From NCBI GenBank assembly GCA_035490535.1, contig DATHCP010000010.1, forward strand, positions 1,088 to 65,087: DNA of 64,000 nt, written 5' to 3'. Position numbers and translations under genes: made by a program. This DNA comes from Actinomycetota bacterium (GTDB lineage: Bacteria; Actinomycetota; UBA4738; HRBIN12). Under the pieces are notes generated by a model. It ran no database searches. It was not told the DNA's origin and saw only the letters and a list, made by a program, of their open reading frames with translations. Shown here in pieces: positions 27,120-51,674 of the stretch. Every line of letters starts with the position of its first letter. The stretch's first letter is position 1.

Positions 27120-28502
27120 TTACCGGAGGGCGGTCGAGACCTCCGATCCCGAGCCGGAGGCAGCCGCCTGGGCCCACGCCTGGGCCCCGACCTGGAGAGG
27201 GTCCCATGGAGAGCTGAAGGGTGGCGTGTAGCTGAGATCCACGTCCGAGAGCTCCTCGACCCGCATCTCGCTGTAGAGGGCCGCGGCGGCGATGTCGATC
27301 CGCTTCGCGACCTGCCCGTTCCGGTGCCCGACGATCTGTGCCCCGAGCAAGCGACCGTCCCGTCGATCGCCGGTCGTCCTGACCGTCATCTTCGTGGCAC
27401 CGGGGTAGTAGACCTTGTGATCCCAGCCCTCGGTCTCGACCGTGAGCGGATCGTGGCCAGCCTCGGCAGCCTCGGCGGTCCGGAGGCCCGTCCGCGCGAC
27501 CGCCAGATCGAAGACCTTGACGACCTGCGTGCCAAGGCTGCCCGCGAACACCCGGTCACCCCCCACCGCGTTCTCGCCCGCGATCCGCCCCTGCTTGTGA
27601 GCGGTGGTCCCGAGCGGCATATAGGTCGGCCGCTGCAGCATGCGGTGCCACGTCTCGACGCAGTCCCCGGCGGCCAAGATGTTGGCGATGCCGGTCCGCA
27701 TCCCTCGGTCCACCACGATCGCGCCACGCACCCCGAGCTCGGCACCCGCGCTCGCCGCCAGCGCGGTGTCGGGTCGCACGCTGACCGCGATCAGCACGGC
27801 GTCCGCCGTCACGGCATCGAACCCGTCGCCGGCCACCTGGAGGGCCCGGCCCTCCTGCGTGATCCGGCGGACGGTCGCCGAGGTCCGCACCTCCACGCCG
27901 TGCGTCCGCAGCTCTCGCCCGACCAGCTCGCCCATCTCGGGATCGACCGTGGTCATCACGCTGGGGAGCTGCTCGAGGACGGTGACCGCCATCTCACGCT
28001 GCGACAACGCGTCCGCCATCTCGAGCCCGATGTAGCCCCCGCCAACGATCACCGCCGCCTCCGCGTCCGCCAACCGATCGTTCAAGGCGAACGTGTCGTC
28101 CATCGTGTGCAGGAGGTGGACGCCCTCGAGCTCGATCCCCGCGATGTCGGGACGGATCGGGACGGCGCCAGTGCCGATCACGAGCCGGTCGTACGGGACC
28201 ATCTCCGTGGTTCCCCGAGCATCCATGAGTTCGACCGTCCGCTCCGAAGGCTCGATCGCCGTCGCGCGGGTGTCGAGGAGCAGCTCGATCCCCGTCGCGT
28301 CGATCTCCTCCCGCGTGCGATGGGCCAGGTCGCGCCAGTCGGGTGTCTCCCCGCTGATGAAATACGGGATCCCGCAGATGCTGAAGTTCGGATAGCGGTC
28401 GGCGACGACCATCGTCACGTCGAAGGAGGGATCCAGCTCCCGCGCCCGCAGCGACGAGCTGATCCCCGCGTCGCTCCCACCGATCACCAGCAATCGCGGC
28501 AT
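27120..28502 (-). CDS. FAD-dependent pyridine nucleotide-disulfide oxidoreductase (CoA-disulfide reductase / NADH oxidase family)
   Basis: LVIGGSDAGISS FAD fold, single redox Cys in YPNFSICGIPYF, second Rossmann VIVGGGYIGLEMA. Confidence 0.7.
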   Translation of the reverse strand: MPRLLVIGGSDAGISSSLRARELDPSFDVTMVVADRYPNFSICGIPYFISGETPDWRDLAHRTREEIDATGIELLLDTRATAIEPSERTVELMDARGTTEMVPYDRLVIGTGAVPIRPDIAGIELEGVHLLHTMDDTFALNDRLADAEAAVIVGGGYIGLEMADALSQREMAVTVLEQLPSVMTTVDPEMGELVGRELRTHGVEVRTSATVRRITQEGRALQVAGDGFDAVTADAVLIAVSVRPDTALAASAGAELGVRGAIVVDRGMRTGIANILAAGDCVETWHRMLQRPTYMPLGTTAHKQGRIAGENAVGGDRVFAGSLGTQVVKVFDLAVARTGLRTAEAAEAGHDPLTVETEGWDHKVYYPGATKMTVRTTGDRRDGRLLGAQIVGHRNGQVAKRIDIAAAALYSEMRVEELSDVDLSYTPPFSSPWDPLQVGAQAWAQAAASGSGSEVSTALR

Positions 28503-29228
28503 CTAGCGGGTCCTCCTCGCCGACGTCCTCCCCTTGGGAGGTACCACCCGGTCACGCAACGTCGCGACGCGTGCGTCCAAGCGCGCAAGCGTTTCATCGA
28601 ACGCCATCTGGGTTCCGGCGTCGGCGGGGTCGGGCGTCGACCAGTGCAGGACGCGGGCACCGAAGATCGAGGCGCCGATCTCCTCGTGGGCGCGGTCGCA
28701 GACCGTTACCACCAGATCGGGCGTGCGTTTCACATCGCCGAGCGGCCGCGGGACGGCGCCCCCCAGACGCAGGCCCCAGCGACCGGCCGCGCGGACGGCG
28801 AGCAGGTGGACGCGGGCCTCGGGGTGGGTCCCGGCGCTCTCCGCCGGCACCTCGCTCGCCCGGTTCCACAGCGCCGCGGCCATCTGCGAACGCGCCGAGT
28901 TGCCCGTGCAGATGAACAACACCGCACCGGCCAGGATCGGGTCGGGCGAAGGCTCCGGTCCCAGCATCTGGGGGATCAGGCGCAGGTATCGGCGACGGCC
29001 GTCTCCTGCGGAGGGGATCCGTTCGACGAGACCGGCGCGCTCGAGGATCGCGACATGATGGGCGAACAGGTTCGATCGGATCCCGATGAGTTCTGCCAGC
29101 TCCGAGGGGGCGAAGTCCCCCGTCCCGAGCAGGTCGACGATGCGGAGGCGATGGGGATCGGCGAGGGCCGCGTGGACCTCGACCCGTCGGCCGAGTTCGA
29201 GGGAACCCGACCCTTGCTCAATAGTCAT
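28503..29228 (-). CDS. ArsR-family HTH fused to low-molecular-weight-phosphatase-type arsenate reductase (ArsR-ArsC fusion)
   Basis: N-terminal ALADPHRLRIVDLL...SNLFAHHVAILERAGLV (ArsR HTH); C-terminal LFICTGNSARSQMAAAL (CX5R P-loop) ... DLVVTVCD. Confidence 0.75.
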   Translation of the reverse strand: MTIEQGSGSLELGRRVEVHAALADPHRLRIVDLLGTGDFAPSELAELIGIRSNLFAHHVAILERAGLVERIPSAGDGRRRYLRLIPQMLGPEPSPDPILAGAVLFICTGNSARSQMAAALWNRASEVPAESAGTHPEARVHLLAVRAAGRWGLRLGGAVPRPLGDVKRTPDLVVTVCDRAHEEIGASIFGARVLHWSTPDPADAGTQMAFDETLARLDARVATLRDRVVPPKGRTSARRTR

Positions 29229-29286
29229 TGAGTCAAGACTAGTTGAGTATGTGGGCGCCGGTCAAGCCGTCCCCGAACGGGATCTT

Positions 29287-30027
29287 CTATGGCTTCCGGG
29301 CGCGCACGATCGCGCCGTACATGTCGTCTGCTTCTTCGTGGGTCGGACGGATCACGATGTCCTCGAAGCCCACCCGCTCCAGCCCGTCCTCGTACTCGGA
29401 GAACGACAGAGCGCCGGCGATGCACCCGACGTAACTCCCCCGGTCGGCCCGGTCCTGCGACGAGAGGCGGTCGTCCGCGACGACGTCACTGATGCCGATC
29501 CGACCGCCGGGACGGAGCACCCGGAACATCTCCGCGAGGACCTTCGGCTTGTCGGTGGACAGGTTGATCACGCAGTTCGAGATCACGACATCGACCGTCG
29601 CGTCATCGAGGGGGATGTCTTCGATGTACCCCTTCAGGAACTCGACGTTGGTCGCGCCCGCCTCCCGGGCGTTCGCCCGCGCTACCTCGAGCATCTCGTC
29701 GGTCATGTCCAGCCCGTAGACGTGGCCGCTCAGGCCGACCCGCTTCGCCGAGAGCAGCACGTCGATCCCGCCACCGGACCCGAGGTCGAGCACGGTCTCG
29801 CCCTCGTTGAGATCCGCCACGGCGATCGGGTTGCCGCATCCGAGGCTCGCTAGCACCGCCTCCTCGGGAAGGCTGCCGCGCTCGGCGTCGTCGTAGAAGC
29901 GAAGACCGAAACCATCGGCCGGCTCGCAACATCCGGCCTCGTTCCGATCGTCCGCGGCCTTGCCCTCGGCGACCGCCCGCGCTGCGGCCGCGTACCGGTC
30001 CCGGACCTGTTCCTGCAGATCGCTCAT
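29287..30027 (-). CDS. arsM: arsenite S-adenosylmethionine methyltransferase (ArsM-like)
   Basis: Conserved Cys pairs GCCEP, LASLGCGNP, VYGLDMTDEM, ISNCVINL; SAM fold VLDLGSGGG. Confidence 0.75.
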   Translation of the reverse strand: MSDLQEQVRDRYAAAARAVAEGKAADDRNEAGCCEPADGFGLRFYDDAERGSLPEEAVLASLGCGNPIAVADLNEGETVLDLGSGGGIDVLLSAKRVGLSGHVYGLDMTDEMLEVARANAREAGATNVEFLKGYIEDIPLDDATVDVVISNCVINLSTDKPKVLAEMFRVLRPGGRIGISDVVADDRLSSQDRADRGSYVGCIAGALSFSEYEDGLERVGFEDIVIRPTHEEADDMYGAIVRARKP

Positions 30028-30049
30028 CACTGCACTCCTCTCATGCATC

Positions 30050-30397
30050 TCATGCACCAAGCGGGACGGCCAGCGCCCCCCGCAGCAGCTCGATCGGCTC
30101 TGGTCGGACCCGGAAATACGCCCACCGACCCCGCTGCTCCCGTTCGAGGAGCCCGGCGTCGGTGAGGACCTTCAGGTGATGGCTGACGGTCGGCTGCGAG
30201 AGCCCGAGTGGCTCCGTCAGGTCACAGACGCACGCCTCGCCGTCCGCGTGGGCCGCGATCAGGCTCAGCAGCCGCAGCCGCGACGGATCGGCCAGGACCT
30301 GGAGCGCCCCGGCGAGGCGTTCGGCGGCCTCGTCGTCGAGCGGCTCGCGGAGCACCGGCGGGCAGCAGGTCTCGTCGATCACCTGGAGCAGCTTCAT
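30050..30397 (-). CDS. arsR: ArsR-family metalloregulator
   Basis: As(III)-binding-type motif EACVCDL (cf. ELCVCDL), HTH LSQPTVSHHLKVL; extra N-terminal DETCCPP. Confidence 0.8.
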   Translation of the reverse strand: MKLLQVIDETCCPPVLREPLDDEAAERLAGALQVLADPSRLRLLSLIAAHADGEACVCDLTEPLGLSQPTVSHHLKVLTDAGLLEREQRGRWAYFRVRPEPIELLRGALAVPLGA

Positions 30398-30508: not shown

Positions 30509-30621
30509 ATGACCGCTAGCCCAACCTCGCGGTCTCGGTCGGCGGGGTCACCTCACTCGCCCCGCCGACCAGGCCGCCAGGAGCGCCGGACGGGAGGCTC
30601 GTGCCGTGACGAAGGCACCCG

Positions 30622-31728
30622 TCAGGCACGGGGTCGGATCTCCACCACCATGTTCGCGTCCGTTGCGGCTGCCCAGACGGTGCCATCCGGCGCGATCGCG
30701 ATGCCGTCCGCGCCGGTCGCGTCGCCGGGGAGCTCGATCCGCTCGATCAGCCCGCCGTTCGGCCGCACGTGGAGGATCTCGCGCCCCGCGGTGGTGACCC
30801 ACAACGAACCGTCCGGGGCGACCGCGAGGTTGTTGATCGGCGACTGGGCCCCCTGGACGGGCATCATGCGCGCAACGCCGGTGGATTGGTCCAGCCGCCC
30901 GATGCCCCGCTCTCGCGAGAACGACACCCACACCTGGCCGTCGCGGCCAACCGCGATGCTCCGCGGGTCGGCCTGATCCTGCGTCGGGATCTCCACGATC
31001 GACGGCTCGGTACCGCCGACGCCGATCCGACCGATCGAACGCGTCCGGGGGTCCGTGAACCAGAGCCGACCGTTCGTTCCCGTCGCGATGTCGTAGGGAG
31101 CGACGCGTTGGTTCGTGCCGTTCGGTGCTGGAACGCTGAACACCGAGGTGTGACCCACGCCGTCGATCCGGAACACCACACCAAGGTTGACATCGGTGAT
31201 CCACATCGAACCGTCGTCTGCTTGGGTCGCCGCCACCGTCCCGGAGGCGTCCACCGCCGACGCGAAGGAGTTCACGGTGCCGTCGGGCAGGATCCGCCCG
31301 ATGTTCCCGTTGGGATATCCGGTGAACCACATCGAGCCGCCCGGGCCGGCGGCGAGCGCGAACGTGCCGGAGTTCGGGAACTTCGCGTCGACCTTGTAGC
31401 TGACCGCTTTGCCTTGGGAGAGGACGGCGACGACACCCTTGTTCTGCTCCGTCACCCAGACCGTTCCGGAGGGTTGCACCGCGACGTCCCGCGGACCCGC
31501 GTAGGCGTCGGGCAGGATCCAACCCGTGGCTCGCCCCCCACCGACCCGCTGCAGAGCGCCCGCTGTGACCGGCACCGCCTGTGGGACGGGGAAGGTCGTC
31601 GACGGCGCGGAGCGATCGTGTGTGGCGAGGAAGGCGATCAACAGGGCCGACCCGACCAGCACCCCCCCAGCCGCGATCCACCCCTCGACCCGACCAGGGC
31701 GGACACGCTGCGACAGGGCTCCGGCCAT
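30622..31728 (-). CDS. Vgb-like (streptogramin-lyase family) 7-bladed beta-propeller, membrane-anchored
   Basis: Repeats G(S/T)xW(F/V)T....IGRI..DG: GSMWFTGYPNGNIGRILPDG, GRLWFTDPRTRSIGRIGVGG, GQVWVSFSRERGIGRLDQ, GSLWVTTAGREILHV; N-terminal TM; start taken as MAGALSQ (31728). Confidence 0.6.
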   Translation of the reverse strand: MAGALSQRVRPGRVEGWIAAGGVLVGSALLIAFLATHDRSAPSTTFPVPQAVPVTAGALQRVGGGRATGWILPDAYAGPRDVAVQPSGTVWVTEQNKGVVAVLSQGKAVSYKVDAKFPNSGTFALAAGPGGSMWFTGYPNGNIGRILPDGTVNSFASAVDASGTVAATQADDGSMWITDVNLGVVFRIDGVGHTSVFSVPAPNGTNQRVAPYDIATGTNGRLWFTDPRTRSIGRIGVGGTEPSIVEIPTQDQADPRSIAVGRDGQVWVSFSRERGIGRLDQSTGVARMMPVQGAQSPINNLAVAPDGSLWVTTAGREILHVRPNGGLIERIELPGDATGADGIAIAPDGTVWAAATDANMVVEIRPRA

Positions 31729-31840
31729 CCGCAGGACGCTAGCAACGAGAAGACGGCGGGACGGGGGCGCGCAGGAGAACGGAGCGTGAACGTCGAGGGC
31801 CCGGCCGGTGCGGCCGGGCCCTCGAACGCTCGAGCCGGGA

Positions 31841-33265
31841 TCAGGTCGCCGCGGCGTCCCGGCAGTAGCTCGCCCCCGTGAACGAGCTGCCGCCGATCGC
31901 ACCCTTCGCGAGCGGCGCGACGCCGTCCGCCTTCAAGGTGTTCACGATCTCGGTGCGGTAGTTCTTGTTCGTCAATGGGTTCATGACCGAGTCCGTCCGG
32001 CACAGGAACCCCTTGTTCGGAGCCAGGTAGTCGAGGGTCGCGACCTCACGTGCGGTCAAGCCGCAGCTGACCGTCCAGGTGTTCTGGCTGTTGAGGTCGA
32101 CCCCGCCAACCGTGGCCCCATCCCGTCCGGTGCACGACCCGGTCGGGAGCGGGTTCGGGAGCAGGAAGTAGTCGTACCGGTACGAACCGAGCGGATACGA
32201 CTTCGGTCCGGAGACCCGAGCCATGGACGCGATCGTCGGCTTGATGCCGTTGACGGACCCGAGGACGCCGGCGCAGAAGCCACCGCCCGCGTGGTTCTGC
32301 ACGAAACGCAGGAACGCGTACGGGTACAGGGCCCGGGACTGGAACGACTTGACGCCGCCCTTCTGGCTGCAGATCGGGCGGGCCTGGTTCTCGACCAAGA
32401 CGTGTTCGCCGTTGGCCGGGTTGCCGTCCTTGTACTTCGCCGGGATGCAGTTCTGGGTCTGGCTCGCATCCGTGTAGCTCGCTGCGTTCGCCGGGTCGAT
32501 CTTCTGAAGGAAGTCCTTCCCGGATCCAGATCCCGCCTGCGTGCCGAAGATCACGATCGTACCCGAGCCGGGTGCCCCGGATTTCGTCCCGATCGAGTTG
32601 CCCTTGCTCTTCGACCAGTCCACCAGGCAATTGCTCCCGACCCCGGTGCCGATGAACGCGCCCTTCAGCCGCGGGAGCGTGGCGTTGGGGGTCGGAACGC
32701 CGGCCTTGGAGTGGGCGACCAGCTTGTTATCGCGGCCCACCCAGTACCCGGCACCGTCGCGACCGTACGCCACACCGTACGCGGTGAAGTTCGCCACCGC
32801 GTAGGTCTGCTTCGACGAGGCACGAGCGAAGTCCGACGAAAGCGCCGTCAGGCCGGACGTGTACTGGCTCAGGACCTTCGTCCCGCTCCCCGAACCGACA
32901 GGGTAGGCCTCGATCGCACGGTCGTGGTACAGGTTGCCCTTCAGGACGATGTTGCCACCATACGGCAGGATCCCGGGGTCACCGGGCGTCGTTCCCGACG
33001 TGTCGTCCGGGTTGAAGCACAGCTCTTGGTAGTTCGAAAACGCGGTGCCGGCCGACGGGATGATCGCGCATCCCACCGCCTCGTTGTAGACCTGGTCCAG
33101 ATCGTTCTGGACCTCGTACAACGTGTCCGATCCAACCCCCGTGATGGTCTGCGAAACGCGGGTCGTGTCGACGTTCGACGCCGCCACCGCGATCCCATTC
33201 GATCCGAACACGAACGCGAGAGCGATACCCACGCCCGTGATCGCACCGAGTACGGATCTGCGCAT
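31841..33265 (-). CDS. secreted PstS-family (PBP-like) paralog, Cys-rich
   Basis: Signal peptide MRRSVLGAITGVGIALAFVFGSNGIAVAA; TITGVGSDTLYEVQNDLDQVY aligns with Pst[22 protein letters not shown]; >12 Cys. Confidence 0.5.
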   Translation of the reverse strand: MRRSVLGAITGVGIALAFVFGSNGIAVAASNVDTTRVSQTITGVGSDTLYEVQNDLDQVYNEAVGCAIIPSAGTAFSNYQELCFNPDDTSGTTPGDPGILPYGGNIVLKGNLYHDRAIEAYPVGSGSGTKVLSQYTSGLTALSSDFARASSKQTYAVANFTAYGVAYGRDGAGYWVGRDNKLVAHSKAGVPTPNATLPRLKGAFIGTGVGSNCLVDWSKSKGNSIGTKSGAPGSGTIVIFGTQAGSGSGKDFLQKIDPANAASYTDASQTQNCIPAKYKDGNPANGEHVLVENQARPICSQKGGVKSFQSRALYPYAFLRFVQNHAGGGFCAGVLGSVNGIKPTIASMARVSGPKSYPLGSYRYDYFLLPNPLPTGSCTGRDGATVGGVDLNSQNTWTVSCGLTAREVATLDYLAPNKGFLCRTDSVMNPLTNKNYRTEIVNTLKADGVAPLAKGAIGGSSFTGASYCRDAAAT

Positions 33266-33354
33266 ACGCAGGTCCCCCTTTCGAGCGGCCGGACACCCCG
33301 CCCGGCGACCGCCGTGGAGGTTTCCAGTCCTATCCGTCGCCGCGGCGTCGAGCA

Positions 33355-33374
33355 GGGAACGGAAAGGTGAACGG
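33355..33374 (-). promoter_or_regulatory. Pho-box-like direct repeat upstream of the PstS-paralog gene
   Basis: Minus strand reads CCGTTCACC-ttt-CCGTTCCC (12-nt spacing), ~90-110 nt upstream of the start at 33265; same 9-mer as upstream of pstC. Confidence 0.35.
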
Positions 33375-33401
33375 CTCCTGAATCACGGGTAACGAGGCTG
33401 C

Positions 33402-34307
33402 TCAGAGGGTGGCCGGAAGGAGTCGGGCCGTGATACCGAACGTCGCCCAGAGCAACGCGAGCACGAGCGGCGTCGCGAGGAAGACCGCCACGCGTGTCGA
33501 GATGCGTCGGCTGAACCACACGGCACCCAGCGCGACGGCGGCCGCAGCCTCGATGAGCAGGAGGAGCCATCCCGCCTTCGCCGGCTGGCCGGCGAGACCG
33601 GTTTCGTCGCTCGGGATCACTTGCGTCGTCAGGGCCGGACCGGGAGCAGGATCCGAGGTGAGCTCCGCCACCACGACGAGCCGTCCCCGGGCCGTATACG
33701 CGGGCGCGGAGGTGACCAAGGTGAGCTGATCCTTCGCCGACGGCGAGATCGGATCGACCTGACCGGGCATCACGGACCCGATCGAGGTGACCTTGTAGGT
33801 GAACGCTCCCTGGCCCGTGATCACGTGGATCTCGTCGCCCGCGCGCATCACGTCGAGGTTCCGGAACGGGGCTCCGAAGGTGGTCCTGCGGCCCGCGATC
33901 ACGCTGTTGCCCGGCCTGCCCGGCACGGGGCTCTCGCGAAGGTGCCCGGGTCCCTGCGTGAGCGCCGAGGCTGAGGTGCCTTCGACCACGATCTCTTCGA
34001 GGCCGATCTTCGGGATCGAGAGCAGTGCTACGGGCTGCCCAGGCGCCGGCCGCCAATCCGTGGTCGTGGCGGGGCCCTGCTGGGTCAGCGAGCGGAACTC
34101 GGGCAGCAACATCCGCTGGCTCCGTTCCTCGATGATCCTCGACGCTCCGAAGAGGTAGACGAGGAACAGTCCGATCACCACAGCGACCGCGATCAGGCAT
34201 ACACCGGCCACGCGGATCACCCGGCCTCGAGGACGGGCTGCCGCGGTCGCGACCGGCTCCGCCGCGGTGAGATCGAACGTCGTCTCGGGTTCCTGCATCG
34301 TCCTCAC
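33402..34307 (-). CDS. sortase-fold (class E-like) membrane protein with substituted catalytic residues
   Basis: QGPGHL...PGRPGNSVIAGRRTTFGAPF...GDEIHV...FTYKV...LTLVTSAP...RLVVVAEL matches sortase core, but AGHR->AGRR and TLxTC->TLVTS; N- and C-terminal TM segments. Confidence 0.6.
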   Translation of the reverse strand: MRTMQEPETTFDLTAAEPVATAAARPRGRVIRVAGVCLIAVAVVIGLFLVYLFGASRIIEERSQRMLLPEFRSLTQQGPATTTDWRPAPGQPVALLSIPKIGLEEIVVEGTSASALTQGPGHLRESPVPGRPGNSVIAGRRTTFGAPFRNLDVMRAGDEIHVITGQGAFTYKVTSIGSVMPGQVDPISPSAKDQLTLVTSAPAYTARGRLVVVAELTSDPAPGPALTTQVIPSDETGLAGQPAKAGWLLLLIEAAAAVALGAVWFSRRISTRVAVFLATPLVLALLWATFGITARLLPATL

Positions 34308-36247
34308 GATGCCGCCCCTTCGGCCGATCCTTGATCCTTCGGCGCCCGACCGGATCGCCCGCCGATGAAACTGCTCCCCAAGAGCACGACCCCGACGGCC
34401 AACGCCGCCATCGCGCCGAACACGAGCCCCGGGAGGATCAACCGAGACGGCGAGGCGACGAGCGCGACCGGCGCGGCAACCGGGGCGACGTACACGACCT
34501 GCTGCGGAGCGATCGAGCTCGTCGGTGGCGCCACGCTCGGCGGCGGCGGCGCGGCCGGAGGCGGAGCCGGCGGGGCGACGACCGGCGGCGGGGGCGCGAC
34601 GACCGGCGGCGGGGGTGGTGGCGGAGCTGCGGTCGGGTGCGGCGTCGGCTCGGGCGGCGCCTTCATGATCTGGTTCGTCAGGACCTTCGTGCGCTGTCGC
34701 AATGCGGGCGGGAGGGGCACGTACCCGGGGGGGAGCGACGTCTGCCCGGCTCCGGCCGCGAAGGTCAGGAACGAGCGCAGCGCATCGAGCTTCTCGGGCG
34801 TGGGCGGGTTCTTGGTGCGCTCAGCGCCGTGCGGGATCGCGGCGTAGCTCACGGTCGGGATCGGCCAGGCTTTCGGATCCTGGCGTCCGTAGGCCGGTGT
34901 CAGGAGCCCCTGCACGTCGGGCCGCATCACGGCGATCCCGCGCGCGATCGTTCTCGGCGTGGCACGGACCACCTTCCCGTTCGGGTACTTGATCCGGACG
35001 GTCGGAAGCTGGTAACTCGCCGCCCACGACGAATCGACGTAGCCGATCCACCCATACGTCGACGTGGAGACGACGTCTCCGTCGCCCTTCGCGATCACAC
35101 GTGCCTCACCGCGTGCGCCTGTGACGAGATCGATCTGACCGAGCGATGGCAGCAGGTCGGTCGGTCCCGACGCGAACGGGTTGGGCTTCATCCTCCGGCC
35201 ACCGGAGACCCACGCCTTCCGGGCGTTCGCCCACATCCAGCTGGTCATCTGCTGCGTGTCCTCGTTCGCGTCGCCGCGGCCGACCGTGGCGATGAACGTG
35301 GGGAACGCGACCGTGGGGTTGAGCTTCTCGATCTCCTTGTCCAGATACCACTGCGTGACCTGCCCGGTGAAGATCTTCGCGAGGAGGTCCGGCGTGAGCG
35401 TCAAGGTGGTGACCTGGTGACCGCTGGTCTGGTCGAAGACGCGGTAGGCGAACACCAGACCCGACGCGGCGATCGGTGCGTACCCGACGGATCCACCGGC
35501 CGCAGAGAGCGCGGCGGTCTGGGGAGCGTCCATCGGTTGGGGGACCACGGCGAGATCGACGTCCGAGAGCCCACCCTGGATGTAGTCGTCCAACGCCGTC
35601 CCCGCCGGCTGCAGCGTGTAGTCCAGCGATAGGTTCAGTGGCGCCGCGCAGACCTTCACCGACCATGCGAACTCGACGACACGGAACCCCGCCGATCCAC
35701 CTTCGGCCGTCAGCGGCGAGCCGTCCGTCGGACAGGCCAGCGGCGGGGTGGCGAACGAGATGGGGACCTCCGTCATCGTTGCGAGGTTCGATGGAGTCGT
35801 GCCGATGAACAACGAGCATGCGTTCTGGAAGTCGCACGTGATCGTCTTGCCGGCGATCGCATCGAGGTTCGGCTTCACGTTGATCAGACCGATCGCGACC
35901 TGCGCGACGGCGCTCCCCGCCCCGGTCTTGTCGACGAGACCGAGGGTTTGGATGCCCGGGCAGGCGTCGCCGCATGTGCTCGTGAACCCCGGCTGCGCGC
36001 ACTGCGACAACGGATCGGTCGCGCCCCGGACGCACTCCCGAAGGTAGAGGACCGAATCACGGGGAAACCCCCGCCAGCTCACCGTCACGTACTGGCCGTC
36101 CCCGGTGAAGTCCAGGAGACCGGCCCGCGGGGAGATCGAGACGCTGGGATGACCTGCCCCGATCGCCGCGCCGGGGAGCCCCACGAGCACCGCGAGCGTC
36201 AGGCAGATGGGCACGATGACCAAGGCGATCCCGCGACGGGTCCGCAT
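34304..36247 (-). CDS. PstS-family paralog with N-terminal Cys-rich domain, Pro-rich linker and C-terminal membrane anchor
   Basis: Signal/TM N-terminus; LTLTPDLLAKIFTGQVTQW...TVAFPTFIATVGRGDAN aligns with Pst[20 protein letters not shown]...[11 protein letters not shown]; (P)n-VVAPPPP linker; C-terminal TM + RSGRAPK; ATGA coupling to sortase-fold gene. Confidence 0.6.
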   Translation of the reverse strand: MRTRRGIALVIVPICLTLAVLVGLPGAAIGAGHPSVSISPRAGLLDFTGDGQYVTVSWRGFPRDSVLYLRECVRGATDPLSQCAQPGFTSTCGDACPGIQTLGLVDKTGAGSAVAQVAIGLINVKPNLDAIAGKTITCDFQNACSLFIGTTPSNLATMTEVPISFATPPLACPTDGSPLTAEGGSAGFRVVEFAWSVKVCAAPLNLSLDYTLQPAGTALDDYIQGGLSDVDLAVVPQPMDAPQTAALSAAGGSVGYAPIAASGLVFAYRVFDQTSGHQVTTLTLTPDLLAKIFTGQVTQWYLDKEIEKLNPTVAFPTFIATVGRGDANEDTQQMTSWMWANARKAWVSGGRRMKPNPFASGPTDLLPSLGQIDLVTGARGEARVIAKGDGDVVSTSTYGWIGYVDSSWAASYQLPTVRIKYPNGKVVRATPRTIARGIAVMRPDVQGLLTPAYGRQDPKAWPIPTVSYAAIPHGAERTKNPPTPEKLDALRSFLTFAAGAGQTSLPPGYVPLPPALRQRTKVLTNQIMKAPPEPTPHPTAAPPPPPPPVVAPPPPVVAPPAPPPAAPPPPSVAPPTSSIAPQQVVYVAPVAAPVALVASPSRLILPGLVFGAMAALAVGVVLLGSSFIGGRSGRAPKDQGSAEGAAS

Positions 36248-36331
36248 CACGGGTGAAGGGTCCGTTCCGGACGTGGCAACCGTCAACGGTCGAGGGGGCG
36301 GGGCGGCCACTCTTCCCCCACGCGCCCTGGA

Positions 36332-36351
36332 CCGTTCACCGTCCGTTCACC
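36332..36351 (+). promoter_or_regulatory. Pho-box-like direct repeat upstream of pstC
   Basis: CCGTTCACC-gt-CCGTTCACC, two identical 9-mers at 11-nt periodicity, ~50 nt upstream of pstC start; shared divergent intergenic region with the gene starting at 36247. Confidence 0.45.
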
Positions 36352-36397
36352 CAAGCTCCCCACGCTCTGTCGGAGCGCAGCACAGCGCCTCTTTCGG

Positions 36398-37396
36398 ATG
36401 TCGACGACCAAGGAACGAGCTCCGGCCGCCAACGTGCCTCCCACGCCCCGCAAGGTGGTGGTCGTCCGGACGCCCGCCGACCGGATGTTCCGCCGGGCCG
36501 CGGCCTGCGCGGGGGGGCTGACGTTGATCATCCTGGTCTTGATCGGGGGGTTCCTGTTCACGAAAGGCCTGCCGGCGCTGAAAGATCAGGGGCTGAAGTT
36601 CTTCACCACCCAGGTCTGGAACCCGCCGCCTCGCGGGAACGAGTTCGGCGTGGCCGCCCTCCTGTACTGGACCGTGGTTGTCGCGCTGATCGCGCTCGTG
36701 ATCGCGGTTCCGCTGTCGGTCGCCGCGGCGCTGTTCGTGACCGAGTTCGCGCCCAGGCGGCTCCGGCGAGCGCTCACATCGCTGATCGACCTGCTGGCGG
36801 CCGTGCCGTCGCTGATCTACGGCATGTGGGGAGCGGCGTACCTGCGGCCGCGGATGATCGGCATCTCGGAGTGGCTCGGGAGATACCTGGGCTTCCTCCC
36901 GATCTTCAAGCCCACGACGAATGCTCCGATCTACGGCCCCTCCGCCTTCGTGGCCGGCGTGGTCGTGTCCTTGATGGTCGTGCCGATCGTGACGTCGGTG
37001 GTCCGCGAGGTCTTCTCCCAGGTCCCGCCCGGCGAGAAGGAGGGCGCGCTCGCGCTCGGCGGCACCCGTTGGGGCATGATCCGGGCCGTCGTGCTGCCGT
37101 TCGGGCGCAGCGGCATCATCGGCGGCTCGATGCTCGGTCTCGGCCGCGCGCTGGGTGAGACGATCGCGATCCTGCTGATCGTCAGCCCGTTGTTCGCGAT
37201 CCGCGCGAACGTGATCGAGGCTGGCGCGATCCCCGTCGCCCCGCTGATCGCGAACAACTTCGGGGAATCGAGCGGCCTCGCGCTCTCGGCCCTCCTCGCC
37301 GCCGGATTCGTGCTGTTCGTCGTCACGCTCCTGGTCAACCTCGGAGCGGCGACCGTGATCGCGCGCTCGCGCTCGGGCGCCGGGGTCGAGATCTGA
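36398..37396 (+). CDS. pstC: phosphate ABC transporter permease PstC
   Basis: Multi-TM; EAA-type loop ALALGGTRWGMIRAVVLP. Confidence 0.9.
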   Translation: MSTTKERAPAANVPPTPRKVVVVRTPADRMFRRAAACAGGLTLIILVLIGGFLFTKGLPALKDQGLKFFTTQVWNPPPRGNEFGVAALLYWTVVVALIALVIAVPLSVAAALFVTEFAPRRLRRALTSLIDLLAAVPSLIYGMWGAAYLRPRMIGISEWLGRYLGFLPIFKPTTNAPIYGPSAFVAGVVVSLMVVPIVTSVVREVFSQVPPGEKEGALALGGTRWGMIRAVVLPFGRSGIIGGSMLGLGRALGETIAILLIVSPLFAIRANVIEAGAIPVAPLIANNFGESSGLALSALLAAGFVLFVVTLLVNLGAATVIARSRSGAGVEI

Positions 37397-38475
37397 TGGG
37401 CGCGCCGCCGGCACCCACGCTCGCGGTGGTCGCGCACGACGCGATCCCCGTCCGGCGCCGACCCACGAGCTTCCACCGGCGGGACGCGGCGATGGTCGTC
37501 GGCTGCGCCGTCTCGTCGCTGGCGCTGACCTGGCTGCTGTACTCACAGATCCTCCCGCTGAGCGGCCTCCCCGGCTTCCTGATGCTCTGGGCGGCGCTCA
37601 ACTTCTTGATGTACTTCACGGCCGTGGCCGCCACGGAGGGCCGGCCCGCCGCTCGAGACCGGACGATGGCCTCGGTCATCACGGTGGCCGCGATCGCGAT
37701 CATCGTGCCGCTCGCCCTGATCCTCGGGTACGTGACGCTCAAAGGCCTGCGGTTCCTGCGTCTGTCCTTCTTCACGACCACGATGGCAAGCGTCGGCCCT
37801 GAGTCGCCCGCCACGGAAACCGGCGGGCTGCAGGCGATCGTCGGAACGCTCGAGCAGGTGGGGATCGCGATGCTGATCAGCGTGCCGCTCGGCGTGCTGA
37901 CGGCCGTCTACCTCAACGAGGTGAAGGGCCGTCTCGCGCGCCCGACACGGGTGTTCGTCGACGCGATGAGCGGCGTGCCGTCGATCGTCGCCGGCCTGTT
38001 CATCTACACGGTCCTGGTCGCGAACGGCGCCGGCTTCTCGGGGTTCGCGGCTGCGCTGGCCCTGTCGATCCTGATGCTCCCGACCGTCACGCGCACGTGC
38101 GAGGTGGTCTTGCGGCTCGTGCCCGGCGGTCTCCGCGAGGCGTCGTTCGCGATGGGGGCACCTGAGTGGCGGACGACCTGGGGGGTGATCCTGCCGACCG
38201 CGAGGATCGGGATCGTCACGGCGACGATCCTCGGCGTGGCGCGAGTGATCGGCGAGACGGCCCCGTTGATCATGACTGCGTTCGGCAGCGCGACGCTGAA
38301 CTTCAACCCCTTCTCGGGCGCCCAGTCGGCGCTGTCGCTGTCCTCGTTCCAGCTGTTCGGTTCGTCCCAGACCGCGGATGTGGATCGGGCCTGGGTGTTC
38401 GCGTTCGTCCTGCTCGCGCTGGTCCTGATCCTGTTCGTGCTGGCGCGGCTGCAGGGCGACCGGCGGCGGCGGTAG
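37396..38475 (+). CDS. pstA: phosphate ABC transporter permease PstA
   Basis: ASFAMGAPEWRTTWGVILPTA EAA loop; ATGA overlap with pstC. Confidence 0.9.
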   Translation: MGAPPAPTLAVVAHDAIPVRRRPTSFHRRDAAMVVGCAVSSLALTWLLYSQILPLSGLPGFLMLWAALNFLMYFTAVAATEGRPAARDRTMASVITVAAIAIIVPLALILGYVTLKGLRFLRLSFFTTTMASVGPESPATETGGLQAIVGTLEQVGIAMLISVPLGVLTAVYLNEVKGRLARPTRVFVDAMSGVPSIVAGLFIYTVLVANGAGFSGFAAALALSILMLPTVTRTCEVVLRLVPGGLREASFAMGAPEWRTTWGVILPTARIGIVTATILGVARVIGETAPLIMTAFGSATLNFNPFSGAQSALSLSSFQLFGSSQTADVDRAWVFAFVLLALVLILFVLARLQGDRRRR

Positions 38476-38505
38476 ATCGGAACCACGACGGAGGAAGCGT
38501 TCGCC

Positions 38506-39324
38506 ATGGCCCAGATCCAGAACCTGATCGATGCGACGCTCGGCGACGGGTCGGCGCCCGCGTCCCTCGTCGCGCAGGATGTCCACGCATGGTTCGGCGA
38601 CCACCACGTCCTGGGGGGCATCTCGCTGAGCATGTCGCCACGTGCGATCACCGCCCTGATCGGTCCCTCCGGCTGCGGCAAGTCGACCTTCCTACGGATC
38701 CTGAACCGGATGCACGAGCTGGTCCCCGGCGCTTCCCTGGCCGGCTCGATCGAGCTGAACGGACAGGACATCTACGGTGCGGAGGTGCGGGCAACGGACG
38801 TGCGTCGCAGGATCGGCATGGTCTTCCAGAAGCCCAATCCCTTCCCGGCGATGACGATCTCCGGCAACGTCCTGTCCGGCCTGAAGCTGTGCGGGATCAA
38901 GGCGAAGGACCCCGATGCGGTCGTCGAGGAGAGCTTGCACCGAGCCGGTTTGTGGAACGAGGTCAAGGATCGGCTCGACCGCCCCGGCGGCACGCTATCC
39001 GGCGGGCAACAACAGCGCCTCTGCATCGCCCGCTCGCTCGCGGTCGAGCCGCAGGTGCTCCTGATGGACGAGCCGTGCTCCGCGCTTGACCCCACGTCGA
39101 CGCGGCGGATCGAGGAGACGATGCGCCACCTCGCCACCTCGATCACGATCGTGATCGTCACGCACAACATGCAACAGGCACAGCGCATCTCGGACAGATG
39201 CGCCTTCTTCAACGTGGAGGAGGGGCAGCCGGGCGGCATCGTGGAGTCCGACACGACCGAACGGATCTTCAACGACCCGAGCGATCCGCGAACCGCGGAT
39301 TACGTGCACGGGCGGTTCGGATGA
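38506..39324 (+). CDS. pstB: phosphate import ATP-binding protein PstB
   Basis: GPSGCGKST Walker [17 protein letters not shown] signature, [11 protein letters not shown]. Confidence 0.93.
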
Positions 39325-40874
39325 GGCGCCTCCTCGCGTTCGTCGCGTCGCTTGCCCTAGCGATCGGCTCGCAGATGCTGTTCCTCTCGCCGGCACAGGC
39401 GACGGGCCCGGCGATCCTGGGCGCCGGTTCGACCTGGTCACAGATCGCGATCGACCAGTGGCGGGCCGACGTGTACCGCTTCGGCCTCCAGGTCAACTAC
39501 CAGGGGGTCGGCTCGACGACGGGCCGCCAGTTCTTCGCCGCGGGGACCGTGGACTTCGCTGCCTCCGAGATCCCGTTCCAGGTTCCGCCCGACCCCCCGG
39601 TGCAGCGCTCCTACGTGTACCTCCCCGACGTCGCTGGCGGGACGTCGATGATGTACAACCTCACAGCGCCGTCGGGGCAGCAGATCCGCGACCTCCGTCT
39701 CACGCCTCCCACGATCGCCGCCATCTTCACCGGCAAGATCACGAATTGGTCCGACCATCGGATCGAGGCGGACTACGGCAAGCCGTTGCCGAACCTCCCG
39801 ATCAAGGTGCTGGTGCGCTCCGACGGCTCCGGCACATCCGCGCAGTTCTCGGCCTTCATCAACGCCGTCGACGGGTCCGCCTGGCGCGCGTTCCTGAGCG
39901 GGTGCCACCAGGCCTACCAGCCGTACACCTCGTTCTGGCCCTACGGCCAGCCCGGCTGCTTGCAGAGCGGCATCGGCCAGCGCGGGTCCGACGGCATCGC
40001 GAACTACATCGCGAACCCGGGCCTCGGGAACGGGGCGATCGGCTACCTGGAGGCGGCGTACGCGGTGAGCCGCAACTTCCCCGTCGTTGCCGTGAAGAAC
40101 CACAGCGGCAACTTCACGCTCCCCACCGCGGCGAACGTCGCGATCGCGCTGCAGCACGCGAAACTCCACAGCGACTCGACCCAGGACCTTTCGGACGTCT
40201 ACAGCGCCCCGGAGCGGTGGGCCTACCCGATCTCGTCGTACTCCTACCTGATCGTCCCGACGGACAGCAGCATCTCGACGGACAAGGGATCGGTGTTGGG
40301 GCAGTTCATCCTCTACCTCGCGTGCACGGGGCAGCAGGCCGCCGCGCGCCTCGGCTACTCGCCGATGCCCAAGGAGCTGGTCCAGTTCGCCTTCGACGCC
40401 GAACAGAAGATCCCGGGGGCGCCGGCGCCTCCCACCCTGACCGGTGCCGCATGCCCGAACCCGACGCTGACCGGCGCCTTCCAAAGTGAGGGCGGCAACA
40501 ACCTGGTCGGCTCCGTCCCATGGTCGGCATCGACCGGCGGAGGTTCGGCCGGCGGAACCGGCGGGGGCTCGACCGGATCGGGCGTCCCCGGCTCCGGAGG
40601 CACCGGATCGACGAACGGATCGGGCGGGACGACCGGCGGGTCCGGATCCGGCGCCGGCACGGCGAGCGGTGGGGTTCCGGGCAGCGACGGGACGATCACG
40701 GCGACGCCGGCCACCCTCAACGATGCCGACCTCGCGAAGCTGAAGAAGCTCGGGGACGAGCAGATCGGCGGGCTCCGGCTCGCGAGCGCCGTTCCGCTGG
40801 CGGCCGTGGCGTTCCTGATCCTGCTGGTCGTCTTCGGGCCCTTCCTGCTGCGCCGCGGCACGCGCGACGGGTAG
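39321..40874 (+). CDS. pstS: phosphate-binding protein PstS, C-terminally membrane-anchored
   Basis: ATGA overlap with pstB; SPase I-type signal peptide (no lipobox Cys); [17 protein letters not shown]; Gly/Ser/Thr-rich linker then [22 protein letters not shown] + RRGTRDG. Confidence 0.85.
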
Positions 40875-41190: not shown

Positions 41191-42585
41191 TCAGCGGTCC
41201 TCGGACCAGGTGGTCCAGCCCTCCGCGTCGTAGGTCGGCAGTCGCACGGCGACCGGAACCGGCGCGCTCGGCGGTGGTCCGGCGTCGGATGGCGACGGGT
41301 CACGGCGACGCCGGAGCCGCTCGAGCGTCGCGACCGAGGCGACGCCCCGCAGCGGAGCCCACCGCGTCGACGGCTCGCGCCGAGCCCAGGTGATCGTCCA
41401 TCCCCCGCTCCTGGACCCCCGCTGAAACGACGTCCGCTGCGTGACCGTCCCGATCATCGCGATCGCGACGCCGATCGCGAGCGCATCCAGCGGCGGGCCG
41501 GACGCGGGGAGGGTCGGGGTCGAGGTCACCTCCGCCGAAGGCGTCAGCAGCCGATCGATCGAATCGAGGGTCCAGCCCCTGCCAACGATCGGTGGCGGAG
41601 CCTTCTCCTCGGGATGCTTCGCGTGCTCCGTGAGCCGGGACTCCGCCATCCGGAGCCAGCCGATCAGCGCCTCCATCGGGTCGACCGCCTCGCCGTCGGC
41701 CGTGAAGTAGCAGAAGTGCACGTGCGGGACGCTGGCGTCGCCGCTGGCGCCGCAGTAGCCGATCACCGTGCCGATGCCGACCTCCGTCCCGTCGGCCAAC
41801 CCCGGGACGTAGGACTTCAGGTGCGCGTAGTACCAGAACGAGCCGTCGTCCCGGACGAGCTCGACCGTGCGGCCGCCCAGCGCGTTCTCCCCGTAGCGGA
41901 GCGTGCCCTTGTCCACCGCGAGGAGCGGCGCGCCGTAGCTGCACAGCACGTCCTGGCCGTGGTGCGGGTGGTAGCCGCCTGTCCATCGTGGCGCGCCCCA
42001 CGTGTCGGACCATGTCGCCGGCCCCTCCACGACGAACGGGGCGTAGATCGTCCGGGCGATCTTCTCCTCGCTCCAGCCCTTGGCACGCAGCACCGCGGCC
42101 GCCGCATCCAGGGGAGCGGTCCCGTAGGTTCCCCAACGGGGATCCGGTTCCCATCCCCGCCACGACCTGCGGTGCCCGCGGTGCGTGCGGCCGTCCGCGT
42201 TCACGAGCATCCGTCGCACGCGCGGAGGCACAGGGTGGCTCGCCGGCGGCAGGGCCTCGGGGACCGTCGGCACGGCCGTCGGCGACGGGCCGGGCAGCGG
42301 CACGAGCGTCGGCGCCGGCGTTCCGGTCGGAGACGGAACGTCGCTCGGCGATGCCTCGGGACTGCTCGGCTCCTCGGTTGGGACGGGGTCAACCGTCGGA
42401 GACGGGTCCCCGGTCGGGGACGGATCGGGTGGGAGCGTCGGGCTCTCCGTCGGGGTCGGCGCGTCTGACGGGGGTGCCTCCTGCGCGATCGCCGACGGCG
42501 CCGAACGCCACAGCGGCTGGGCCAGGAACAACGTCACGAGCACGACGAGCGTCGCCGGCCACCAGGTCCCTCCCCTGTGACGCAT
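41191..42585 (-). CDS. M23 family metallopeptidase with Pro-rich N-terminal region
   Basis: Signal peptide; PT/PS-rich segment; HPHHGQD and SVPHVHF (HxH) Zn motifs. Confidence 0.65.
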   Translation of the reverse strand: MRHRGGTWWPATLVVLVTLFLAQPLWRSAPSAIAQEAPPSDAPTPTESPTLPPDPSPTGDPSPTVDPVPTEEPSSPEASPSDVPSPTGTPAPTLVPLPGPSPTAVPTVPEALPPASHPVPPRVRRMLVNADGRTHRGHRRSWRGWEPDPRWGTYGTAPLDAAAAVLRAKGWSEEKIARTIYAPFVVEGPATWSDTWGAPRWTGGYHPHHGQDVLCSYGAPLLAVDKGTLRYGENALGGRTVELVRDDGSFWYYAHLKSYVPGLADGTEVGIGTVIGYCGASGDASVPHVHFCYFTADGEAVDPMEALIGWLRMAESRLTEHAKHPEEKAPPPIVGRGWTLDSIDRLLTPSAEVTSTPTLPASGPPLDALAIGVAIAMIGTVTQRTSFQRGSRSGGWTITWARREPSTRWAPLRGVASVATLERLRRRRDPSPSDAGPPPSAPVPVAVRLPTYDAEGWTTWSEDR

Positions 42586-42678
42586 CCCGCGTCAGGCTCT
42601 CCTCCGCCGGCGAACGCGCGGCGAACGACGCCTGAATGCGCCGCGGCCGTTCGCGGCGCGGAGGTTACGGAGCGGGGC

Positions 42679-50160: not shown

Positions 50161-50907
50161 ATGGCGTGGATCGCGATCGTCGGGATCGGACTCGGGGTCG
50201 GGTTCCTCGCGGGGTTGTTCGGCAAGGGCGGGTCGGCGGTCGCGACGCCCTTGCTCGCGGCGGCCGGCGTCCCGCCGCTCGTGGCCCTCACCGCTCCCCT
50301 TCCGGCGGCGATCCCGACCTCCCTCGCCGGCGAGCTCGCCTACCGCGGGAGCGGCGGGCCGGACCGGCGCGTGCTCCTGTGGTCGGCGGCGTTCGGCGTC
50401 CCGGCCACGATCGCCGGCGCGCTGGCGTCGCGTCTGGTCGGCGGCACGATCCTGCTGCGCGCCACGGATCTGCTGATCTTCGCGCTCGGCCTGCGGCTGA
50501 CGCTCCGCCGCAGGACCGACGTCCCGGTGGTGCCGATGCCGCGACACCCCACCTCGCGGCTGGCGTTCGTGGCGACCGGCGTCGGGCTCGTCTCGGGGCT
50601 GCTGGCGAACAGCGGCGGCTTCCTGCTCGCACCGCTGTACGTGATCGCGCTTCGGATGCCGATCAAGCGTGCGTTCGCGACATCCCTCGCCGTGGCCGCG
50701 ATCCTCGCGGTTCCGGGCACGCTCGCGCACTGGGAGCTGGGCCACCTCGACTGGACGGTCGTGGCGGTCTTCGCGGCGGCATCGGTTCCCACCGCGTTCG
50801 TCGGGGCCCGGGTCGCGGTCCGCACGAGCGCCCCGCGGCTCGAACGGATCTACGGCGCGGCGCTGGTGCTGCTCGGGCCGGTGTTCCTGGCGCTCAGCTT
50901 CCGCTGA
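50161..50907 (+). CDS. TauE/SafE (DUF81) family sulfite/anion exporter
   Basis: 8-TM protein with duplicated G-rich motifs GLFGKGGSAV / LANSGGFLLAPL. Confidence 0.7.
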   Translation: MAWIAIVGIGLGVGFLAGLFGKGGSAVATPLLAAAGVPPLVALTAPLPAAIPTSLAGELAYRGSGGPDRRVLLWSAAFGVPATIAGALASRLVGGTILLRATDLLIFALGLRLTLRRRTDVPVVPMPRHPTSRLAFVATGVGLVSGLLANSGGFLLAPLYVIALRMPIKRAFATSLAVAAILAVPGTLAHWELGHLDWTVVAVFAAASVPTAFVGARVAVRTSAPRLERIYGAALVLLGPVFLALSFR

Positions 50908-51674
50908 GGCCGCCGCCCGTAGCGGACGTGCTCGAGCGTCAGCCCGTGCGGCGGCGCGATCGGCGGCGCGCCCGATCGGTCCCGGGCCCGAAGGATCCGC
51001 GCGACGTCGCCGGGATCGAGCTTCCCGTCCCCGACCGCCACGAGGGTTCCCACGAGCGCCCGCACCATCTGGTGCAGGAACGCGTCGGCCGCGAACCGAA
51101 GCTCGAGGAGGTCGCCCGAGCGCCGCACCGAGATCCTCCGGAGCTCCCGCACGGTGGAACGGCCCGGACCCGGGTGCCGGCAGAAGGATGTGAAGTCGTG
51201 CTCGCCGACGAGCGTGCGGGCCGCCGCGCGCATCGGCCCCAGCGCCGGCGCGCCGGGCCGGTGCCACGTGAACCGTGCGGTGAACGGGTCCGGCAGCGGC
51301 GCGACGCCGATCGCGTACCGGTACGCGCGCTCGATCGCCCACCGCCGCGCGTCGAACCCGTCGGGGGCCACCGTCGCGCGGCGGATCACGACCTCGGGCG
51401 CGAGCGCGCCGTTCAGCGCCGCGGCGATCCGCTCCGGCGCCAGCCCGGAGCCGGTGACGAACGACGTCACCTGGCCGGCCGCGTGGACGCCGGCGTCGGT
51501 GCGGCCGGCGACCACGAGCCGGACCTCCTGGCGGAGGATCCGCTCCAGGGCGCCGGTCAGCTCACCCTGGACCGTGCGGATCGCGGGATCGCGCTGCGCG
51601 GCCCAGCCGCGGAAACCGGTGCCGTCGTAGGCGAGGTCGAGCCGGATCGTGCGCGGGGTGGAGCCGGAGCTCAC
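50850..51674 (-). CDS. truA: tRNA pseudouridine(38-40) synthase
   Basis: [18 protein letters not shown]...GRTDAGVHA catalytic Asp loop; GTG start in GTGA overlap with rplQ stop; 3' end overlaps tauE convergently. Confidence 0.85.

Follow-up and report, generated by a model that had tools for sequence, protein, structure and literature searches.

A predicted PHO box upstream of a pstC-pstA-pstB-pstS operon in an uncultured actinobacterial lineage

The Pho box of Escherichia coli is made up of two 7-bp direct repeats with 4-bp spacers, giving an 11-bp phase, and it replaces the -35 element about 10 bp 5' of the -10 element, where a head-to-tail response-regulator dimer acts by class II activation. 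We know of no published general consensus for RegX3. At esx-5 of Mycobacterium tuberculosis the RegX3 site is GGTGCcaactGGTGA, with 5-bp repeats and a 5-bp spacer in a 10-bp period (bioRxiv 10.1101/400960). The PHO box of Streptomyces consists of 11-nt units with the consensus G(G/T)TCAYYYR(G/C)G, with GTTCAY in class I operators, and lies on the coding strand (PMC2275107); in the S. coelicolor pstS and phoU operators, both on the coding strand and both activating, the distances from +1 are 39 and 38 nt (PMC2275107, Table 1). In Microlunatus phosphovorus, the DevR-like protein PolR was reported to bind GTTCACnnnnnGTTCaC at the pit, pstS, ppk and ppgk promoters, and the authors of that study point out its identity with the Streptomyces PhoP box (PMC6754071). 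Tandem repeats in an 11-bp phase are the hallmark of OmpR/PhoB winged-helix dimers (PMC4832192). Our literature search found no paper naming both 'PHO box' and Acidimicrobiia.

The original prediction for the DNA analysed here (64,000 nt with a G+C content of 71%; the whole stretch is called the window below) was that two identical 9-mers in an 11-nt phase upstream of pstC form a PHO box, and that a related repeat, in the same orientation to its downstream gene, precedes a PstS paralog.

Site 1 and its promoter setting

The sequence CCGTTCACCgtCCGTTCACC at 36332-36351 (+), hereafter site 1, ends 47 nt 5' of the pstC ATG (36398) on the coding strand of pstC, within a 150-nt divergent intergenic region (ATG of the opposite gene at 36247, -). 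It contains the 9-mer CCGTTCACC twice (36332-36340 and 36343-36351, +) with a period of 11 nt, so that the predicted sequence and phase were both confirmed. Read as PHO box units (Table 1), the site comprises two contiguous elements that both start with GTTCACC, at 36334 and 36345, exactly 11 nt apart; these match the Streptomyces consensus at 8/11 and 10/11 positions, GTTCAY being present in both, while positions 8-11 of the first unit deviate from YR(G/C)G. When the entire window was scanned against Rfam with gathering thresholds there were zero matches, and a known RNA element therefore does not explain the region.

Table 1. Coordinates of the features described in the text (positions within the window).
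Feature	Position	Strand	Remarks
Site 1, predicted PHO-box-type operator	36334..36355	+	GTTCACCGTCC 36334-36344, then GTTCACCCAAG 36345-36355
Weak phased unit CTTCCCC	36312..36318	+	22 nt (two helical turns) 5' of site 1 unit 1
Candidate -10 hexamer CACGCT (NANNNT)	36361..36366	+	9 nt past core of site 1 unit 2
Operon pstC-pstA-pstB-pstS	36398..40874	+	TIGR02138, TIGR00974, TIGR00972, TIGR00975; Pfam
pstC	36398-37396	+	
pstA	37396-38475	+	
pstB	38506-39324	+	
pstS	39321 (probable start) to 40874	+	Gly/Ser-rich linker, C-terminal membrane anchor
647-aa secreted protein gene	34304..36247	-	neocarzinostatin-like N-terminal domain, weak PstS-like domain, Pro-rich linker, membrane anchor
Putative promoter of 647-aa gene	TTGACG 36286-36281; GACCCT 36262-36257	-	18-nt spacer; GTG-ATG 6-9 nt on
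Sortase gene	33402..34307	-	PF04203 1.9e-25; class E best match
Site 2	33354..33383	-	ATTCAGG (weak, 33383-33377); GTTCACC (strong, 33372-33366) +11 nt; GTTCCCT (weak) +12 nt; matrix scores 17.2 and 15.3 bits
474-aa secreted, Cys-rich PstS-like protein gene	31841..33265	-	remote homology and predicted fold
Hairpin	31793..31825	-	perfect 15-nt arms, after stop of 474-aa gene; terminator-like, without T tract
Site 3	31770..31791	-	GTTCACGCTCC and GTTCTCCTGCG, 11-nt period; 19.7 bits
368-aa beta-propeller protein gene	30622..31741 (ATG 31728)	-	PF24684 3.7e-45; weak SGL and Phytase-like matches
Arsenic-resistance-like cluster	27120-30397	-	
ArsR-type HTH	30050-30397	-	
SAM methyltransferase	29287-30060	-	
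ArsR-HTH fused to low-molecular-weight phosphatase/ArsC-like domain	28503-29228	-	
Pyridine-nucleotide disulfide oxidoreductase	27120-28502	-	
Site 4, candidate	42605..42637	-	ATTCAGGcgtc GTTCGCCgcgc GTTCGCCggcg, three phased units

The repeat alone proves nothing, since any exact 9-mer repeat at an 11-nt offset occurs on average 1.19 times per Markov-simulated window (at least once in 56% of them), that is, about 1.2 times per 64 kb; the count of CCGTTCACC itself is 4 in the window against 0.75 expected. Tests specific to the sequence settle the matter. A 22-nt weight matrix was derived from 21 sites that all come from lineages outside the window's clade. With this matrix site 1 obtained the top score in the 64 kb on both strands (24.4 bits), where the maximum in 100 simulated windows was 13.4 +/- 2.0 and the largest value reached 19.0. 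Ranks 2 and 3 fell to 31770-31791 (-), site 3 of Table 1, with 19.7 bits, and to 33362-33383 (-), in the region of site 2, with 17.2 bits, and these top three matches are all intergenic and lie mutually within 5 kb. The sequence of site 1 is not a matter of chance.

A search for pstC relatives, limited to one genome per species, yielded 80 loci (L001-L080). Three of them, L001-L003, are close (PstC identity 85-88%; uncultured Actinomycetes or Actinomycetota MAGs), and the remaining pstC loci, at 45-61% identity, are drawn from Acidimicrobiia, Frankia, Iamia, Streptosporangiales, Micromonosporales and some Streptomyces, among others. TTCACC-N4-GTTCAC is invariant in L001-L003, where the surrounding intergenic region averages 71% column identity; conservation in related genomes had been proposed as a check on the original prediction, and both units are indeed retained in these relatives while the flanks diverge.

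The candidate -10 hexamer of pstC (Table 1) has counterparts at the same distance of 9 nt in other loci, namely GAAGCT/GAGGCT (L001-L003), CAGAGT (L006), CATCCT (L050) and CAGCGT (L073), so that a NANNNT hexamer with this spacing recurs in four independent lineages. The A at position 2 and the T at position 6 are the essential positions of a -10 element; as each of these bases has a frequency of only about 15% in this DNA, recurrence at a fixed spacing in four lineages is unlikely to be due to chance. A generic sigma-70 consensus scan of 31500-36600 returned no promoter and one irrelevant terminator, and the -10 assignments thus rest on the cross-lineage spacing only. Transcription of pstC would start near 36373, and with site 1 ending 9 nt before the -10-like hexamer the box would occupy about -39 to -22 relative to that start.

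We infer a role for the weak unit CTTCCCC upstream of site 1 (Table 1). Its TTCC is invariant in L001-L003, and a unit occupies the same -22 position in L006 (ATTCACC), L050 (GTTCACG) and L071 (GTTCACT). In several unrelated lineages the -22 unit is found without a recognisable unit at -11, which places the units at 0, +22 and +33 nt.

The operon, the divergent genes and sites 2 to 4

The order pstC-pstA-(pstB)-pstS is common to all 80 loci. In nearly all PstS proteins of this operon type a long low-complexity linker leads into a hydrophobic helix at the C-terminus, where a GP(P) motif and an Arg-rich tail are usual and LPXTG is absent. PstS is normally a lipoprotein in Gram-positives, and its tethering by a C-terminal helix is unusual; a search of the PstS-like proteins for LPXTG or LAXTG found neither. 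A sortase gene often adjoins pstC-A-B-S operons. In L001, L003, L065 and L073 either pstA or pstB is split into adjacent frames (tblastn), probably through homopolymer sequencing errors, and the gene calls in these records consequently need care.

Read away from site 1 on the minus strand, the genes encode the 647-aa secreted protein, the sortase, the 474-aa secreted protein and the 368-aa beta-propeller protein, and an independent gene caller applied to a second assembly of the same DNA gave identical genes. In the 647-aa protein, an N-terminus resembling neocarzinostatin and the enediyne chromoproteins is fused to a weak PstS-like domain, and homologues with 23-35% identity are encoded divergently from pstC in several Acidimicrobiia loci. 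The gene appears to have its own promoter (Table 1), the blocks CCGTCAAC and AAGGGTCCG of which are conserved. The site 1 box lies 84-101 nt upstream of the predicted start of this gene and in the opposite orientation, and is thus positioned for pstC. The sortase scored 115.8 bits with the class E model NF033747, below the curated cut-off of 160. Further along, an arsenic-resistance-like cluster adjoins the phosphate genes (Table 1).

Site 2, CCGTTCACCtttCCGTTCCC at 33374-33355 (-), is located 90 nt 5' of the ATG (33265) of the 474-aa protein gene. It corresponds to the second repeat of the original prediction, which is real, stands upstream of the 474-aa gene and, like site 1, has the coding-strand orientation of its downstream gene, as had been stated; it is, however, out of the 11-nt phase by 1 nt here, the downstream unit being 12 nt away in the window and 11 nt away in L001-L003, which indicates a 1-nt insertion in the window. 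In S. coelicolor a 1-nt deletion, resulting in a 10-nt repeat, drastically cut binding, a 12-nt spacing being outside that test (PMC2275107). Given this effect and the 12-nt spacing, site 2 may be weakened here or may use its upstream partner.

The 474-aa protein gave no Pfam or NCBIfam match even at E <= 1 (PF12849 and TIGR00975 included), and nothing significant was found against PDB sequences, where PstS1 was reached by profile search with only E 0.47. Its homologues at about 40% identity are phosphate-binding proteins by JGI naming, and PF12849 is present in more distant ones (27% identity, E 7.5e-13). When its mediocre AlphaFold model (pLDDT 65) was compared with PDB folds, PstS proteins took all of the first 25 places, 23 of these at E <= 1e-3. 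Judged by remote homology and predicted fold only, it is a divergent PstS-like protein; the label 'PstS paralog' given to it earlier thus holds for a PstS-like fold and for transitive homology but not for sequence matches to family models.

Site 3, which the original prediction did not include, reads GTTCACGctccGTTCTCC and follows directly after the hairpin of Table 1, 32 nt 5' of the -10 element of the next gene. It is conserved in L001 (GTTCACCgtccGTTCCCC) and L003, as is the hairpin (31793-31825). The next gene encodes the secreted beta-propeller protein, of the Vgb_lyase/SGL family, and is preceded by TGcTAGCGT (31741-31736), 7 nt and the ATG, a spacing that is invariant in L001 and L003; this region (31726-31745) has the form of what would be a leaderless extended -10 promoter. 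A 377-aa ORF at 30548-31681 was rejected, its translation being Arg-rich nonsense, and the 368-aa frame from ATG 31728 is backed by the independent gene call.

An alternative for sites 2 and 3 is that, as decayed or accessory boxes, they fail to activate the downstream genes here and act, perhaps, as low-affinity modulators or roadblocks, a reading that we take seriously even as we lean against it. It would account for the 12-nt spacing of site 2 in the window, as opposed to 11 nt in the relatives, for the presence of just one strong unit in that site, and for the distance of both sites from the candidate -10 hexamers, which is 30-32 nt rather than 9 nt; the putative extended -10 promoter of the beta-propeller gene would, moreover, be self-sufficient. 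However, both sites are conserved in relatives, sites 3 and 2 rank second and third by matrix in the window, and the orf474-like genes of L012 and L031 have a strong GTTCACC between weak units upstream. Cooperative binding, in addition, is described for operators of S. coelicolor that include weak extension units (PMC2275107).

Apart from site 1, the window has an exact 9-mer repeat at an 11-nt offset only at site 4, which L002 and L003 retain. Its last core is followed by 9 nt, GAGCCT (42599-42594), 8 nt and ATG 42585 of an M23 peptidase gene (41191-42585), so that it shares with site 1 the geometry of 9 nt and then NANNNT. Since the 14.9 bits that it scores fall inside the null range, it is listed as a candidate only; it is possibly a fourth PHO operator, with a promoter form that suggests a leaderless transcript. 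The fourth copy of CCGTTCACC (51279-51287, -) was dismissed as chance, lying in a coding region with a GTTCACG partner at a 12-nt offset and outside the top 20 matrix matches. The wider repeat, CCGTTCACCgcaCGGTTCACG at 51262-51287 (-), is inside the ORF 50850-51674 and most likely represents a coincidence of codon periodicity.

Association with Pho genes and the binding protein

The two-unit GTTCACC motif was counted on the coding strand in the 300 nt 5' of pstC, with random 300-nt segments from the same loci as controls. With <=2 mismatches it was present upstream of pstC in 22/80 loci and in 13/1506 controls (Fisher p ~1e-21), and with <=3 mismatches in 36/80 and 44/1506, respectively (Fisher p 5e-29). 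The upstream matches come from no fewer than 15 lineages, which include Acidimicrobiia, Frankia and Iamia. In about 70% of the loci, those of Streptomyces and Dactylosporangium without exception, no good box stands upstream of pstC, so that operons of this type are not universally regulated. Codon periodicity inflates the number of GTTCACC pairs at offsets divisible by 3; at the other offsets, enrichment was confined to 11 nt (59 pairs) and 22 nt (32 pairs), against 10-21.

Matches with <=1 mismatch numbered 14 across the loci, 8 of them just 5' of pstC. Among the 6 found elsewhere, four are located in the phoU divergent region of L005, in the divergent regions between phoU and the pstB-kinase-regulator genes of L069 and L072, and upstream of the canonical pstS of L069; of the other two, the L001 match precedes the beta-propeller gene and corresponds to site 3, and the L071 match stands 5' of a secreted-protein gene. 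The canonical pstS genes of L050, L072 and L004 have weaker phased GTTCACC repeats upstream on the coding strand. The phoU genes next to the boxes were confirmed by TIGR02135 above its cut-off. Enrichment at Pho genes had been the other check proposed, and it bears the prediction out, both in the excess upstream of pstC at <=2 mismatches and in the near-perfect copies, which elsewhere are mostly found beside phoU, kinase-regulator clusters and pstS.

L069 and L072 encode phoU, pstB, a PhoR/SenX3-like kinase and a RegX3-like regulator. The regulator adjacent to phoU matches M. tuberculosis RegX3 with E 4e-83, and PDB similarity favours RegX3, in a search that returned no Streptomyces PhoP structure for comparison; all NCBIfam matches of the L069 and L072 regulator were below cut-off. 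The 64-kb window contains no gene for the cognate regulator or for a phosphate two-component system.

Site 1 could be the operator of another factor that recognises tandem GTTCAC, such as a NarL/DevR-type protein like PolR, a SARP/AfsR-like protein, or an OmpR paralogue (MtrA or GlnR), in which case the signal might not be phosphate; we consider this improbable. To our knowledge, GTTCACC fits neither the MtrA nor the GlnR consensus, which counts against these two. In favour of another factor, PolR of Microlunatus was reported on GTTCACnnnnnGTTCaC at phosphate genes, but by the PolR authors' own remark that site equals the Streptomyces PhoP box (PMC6754071). Against another factor stand also the 11-bp phase of the repeats, which is typical of OmpR/PhoB winged-helix dimers, and the co-occurrence of the motif with phoU, pstS and a RegX3-like two-component system across lineages. 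That no regulator is involved at all, site 1 being a chance or promoter-intrinsic repeat (for instance, two -35-like TTCACC elements kept by promoter location), is very improbable: a generic repeat of this type is to be expected about once per window, TTCACC equals TTGACA at 4/6 positions and the close relatives L001-L003 are just moderately diverged, but with spacers of 20 and 9 nt to the candidate -10 both TTCACC elements fall outside the range of 16-19 nt, the 11-nt-phased two-unit form recurs at pst and phoU genes where PstC is only 45-60% identical, and site 1 scores above all 100 null windows.

We therefore prefer, with a probability of roughly 80%, the reading of site 1 as a class I PHO box at which a phosphate-starvation regulator of the PhoP/RegX3 type would bind and activate pstC-pstA-pstB-pstS. 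The central claim of the original prediction, that the repeats constitute a PHO box, is supported by sequence, phase, conservation, enrichment at pst and phoU genes in many lineages and the recurring distance from box to hexamer, binding itself being predicted; we infer from the DNA which protein binds site 1, where transcription begins, that regulation is an activation and that it depends on phosphate.

In the mechanism that we propose for this PHO box, an OmpR/PhoB-family response regulator (of the PhoP or RegX3 type) would bind site 1 as a head-to-tail dimer, with one monomer per 11-nt unit on the same face of the helix, and the box would stand in for the -35 element. The phosphorylated regulator on the box would recruit RNA polymerase in a class II activation, and phosphate scarcity would in this way switch on pstC-pstA-pstB-pstS. 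Weaker or differently placed operators (sites 2, 3 and 4) probably join the neighbouring genes to the same regulon.

It is a more doubtful proposition that the box is part of an undescribed, PHO-controlled 'alternative Pst' supercluster, widespread in Acidimicrobiia and several orders of Actinomycetes. Such a supercluster would have the order pstC-A-B-S and a PstS held on a C-terminal helix (GPP motif, Arg-rich tail) with no lipobox; a sortase would frequently be adjacent, and there would be two aberrant PstS-like proteins, one with the neocarzinostatin-like fusion, and a secreted beta-propeller protein. If this were true, a phosphate-scavenging apparatus displayed at the surface would be coordinated through three or four operators, and the recurring operator layout of 0, +22 and +33 nt would be unlike the contiguous operators of Streptomyces. 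The analysis also flags four unannotated secreted proteins as products of likely phosphate-starvation genes, namely the two divergent PstS-like proteins, the beta-propeller protein and the M23 peptidase, and the 22-nt matrix is usable for the prediction of Pho regulons in MAGs.

Comparison with known systems

In its sequence, phase, strand, gene context and conservation, site 1 agrees with what is expected of an actinobacterial PHO box, and can be classed as one at the level of prediction. Its closest counterpart is the class I box of S. coelicolor (Sola-Landa et al. 2005, 2008; PMC2275107), which likewise has two contiguous 11-nt GTTCAY units on the coding strand, holds its information in the first 7 positions and, as predicted for site 1, adjoins or replaces the -35 element and controls the high-affinity phosphate transporter; the distance from the first unit to the putative start, about 39 nt, is that of S. 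coelicolor pstS. In contrast to S. coelicolor, pstC and not pstS is the first gene after the box (pstC-A-B-S), the host belongs to an uncultured soil lineage of Actinomycetota and its PstC shares only about 50% identity with those that Streptomyces encodes in operons of this type. A further unit may be present here 22 nt upstream, non-contiguous with the others, whereas the published core units of Streptomyces are contiguous.

The Microlunatus site GTTCACnnnnnGTTCaC has a core and spacing identical to those of site 1 and is found at phosphate-transport genes, in another order and assigned experimentally to PolR. The RegX3 site at esx-5 is likewise a direct repeat for a phosphate-responsive regulator of the OmpR family, and its GGTGA is the reverse complement of the TCACC found here; it differs in lying far upstream of its promoter and in its 10-bp period, that of site 1 being 11 nt. 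The E. coli PhoB box differs in its repeat, which is of the CTGTCAT type as against GTTCACC here, and belongs to another sigma factor and another promoter context.

It is the host and the layout of the operon that are unusual, not the mechanism, and the concept of Pho regulation is unchanged. With this predicted site, the experimentally defined PHO box of Streptomyces gains, in sequence, phase and promoter geometry, a wider range that takes in the Acidimicrobiia and a lineage of uncultured soil actinobacteria, which suggests that the DNA specificity of the regulator is ancient within the Actinomycetota.
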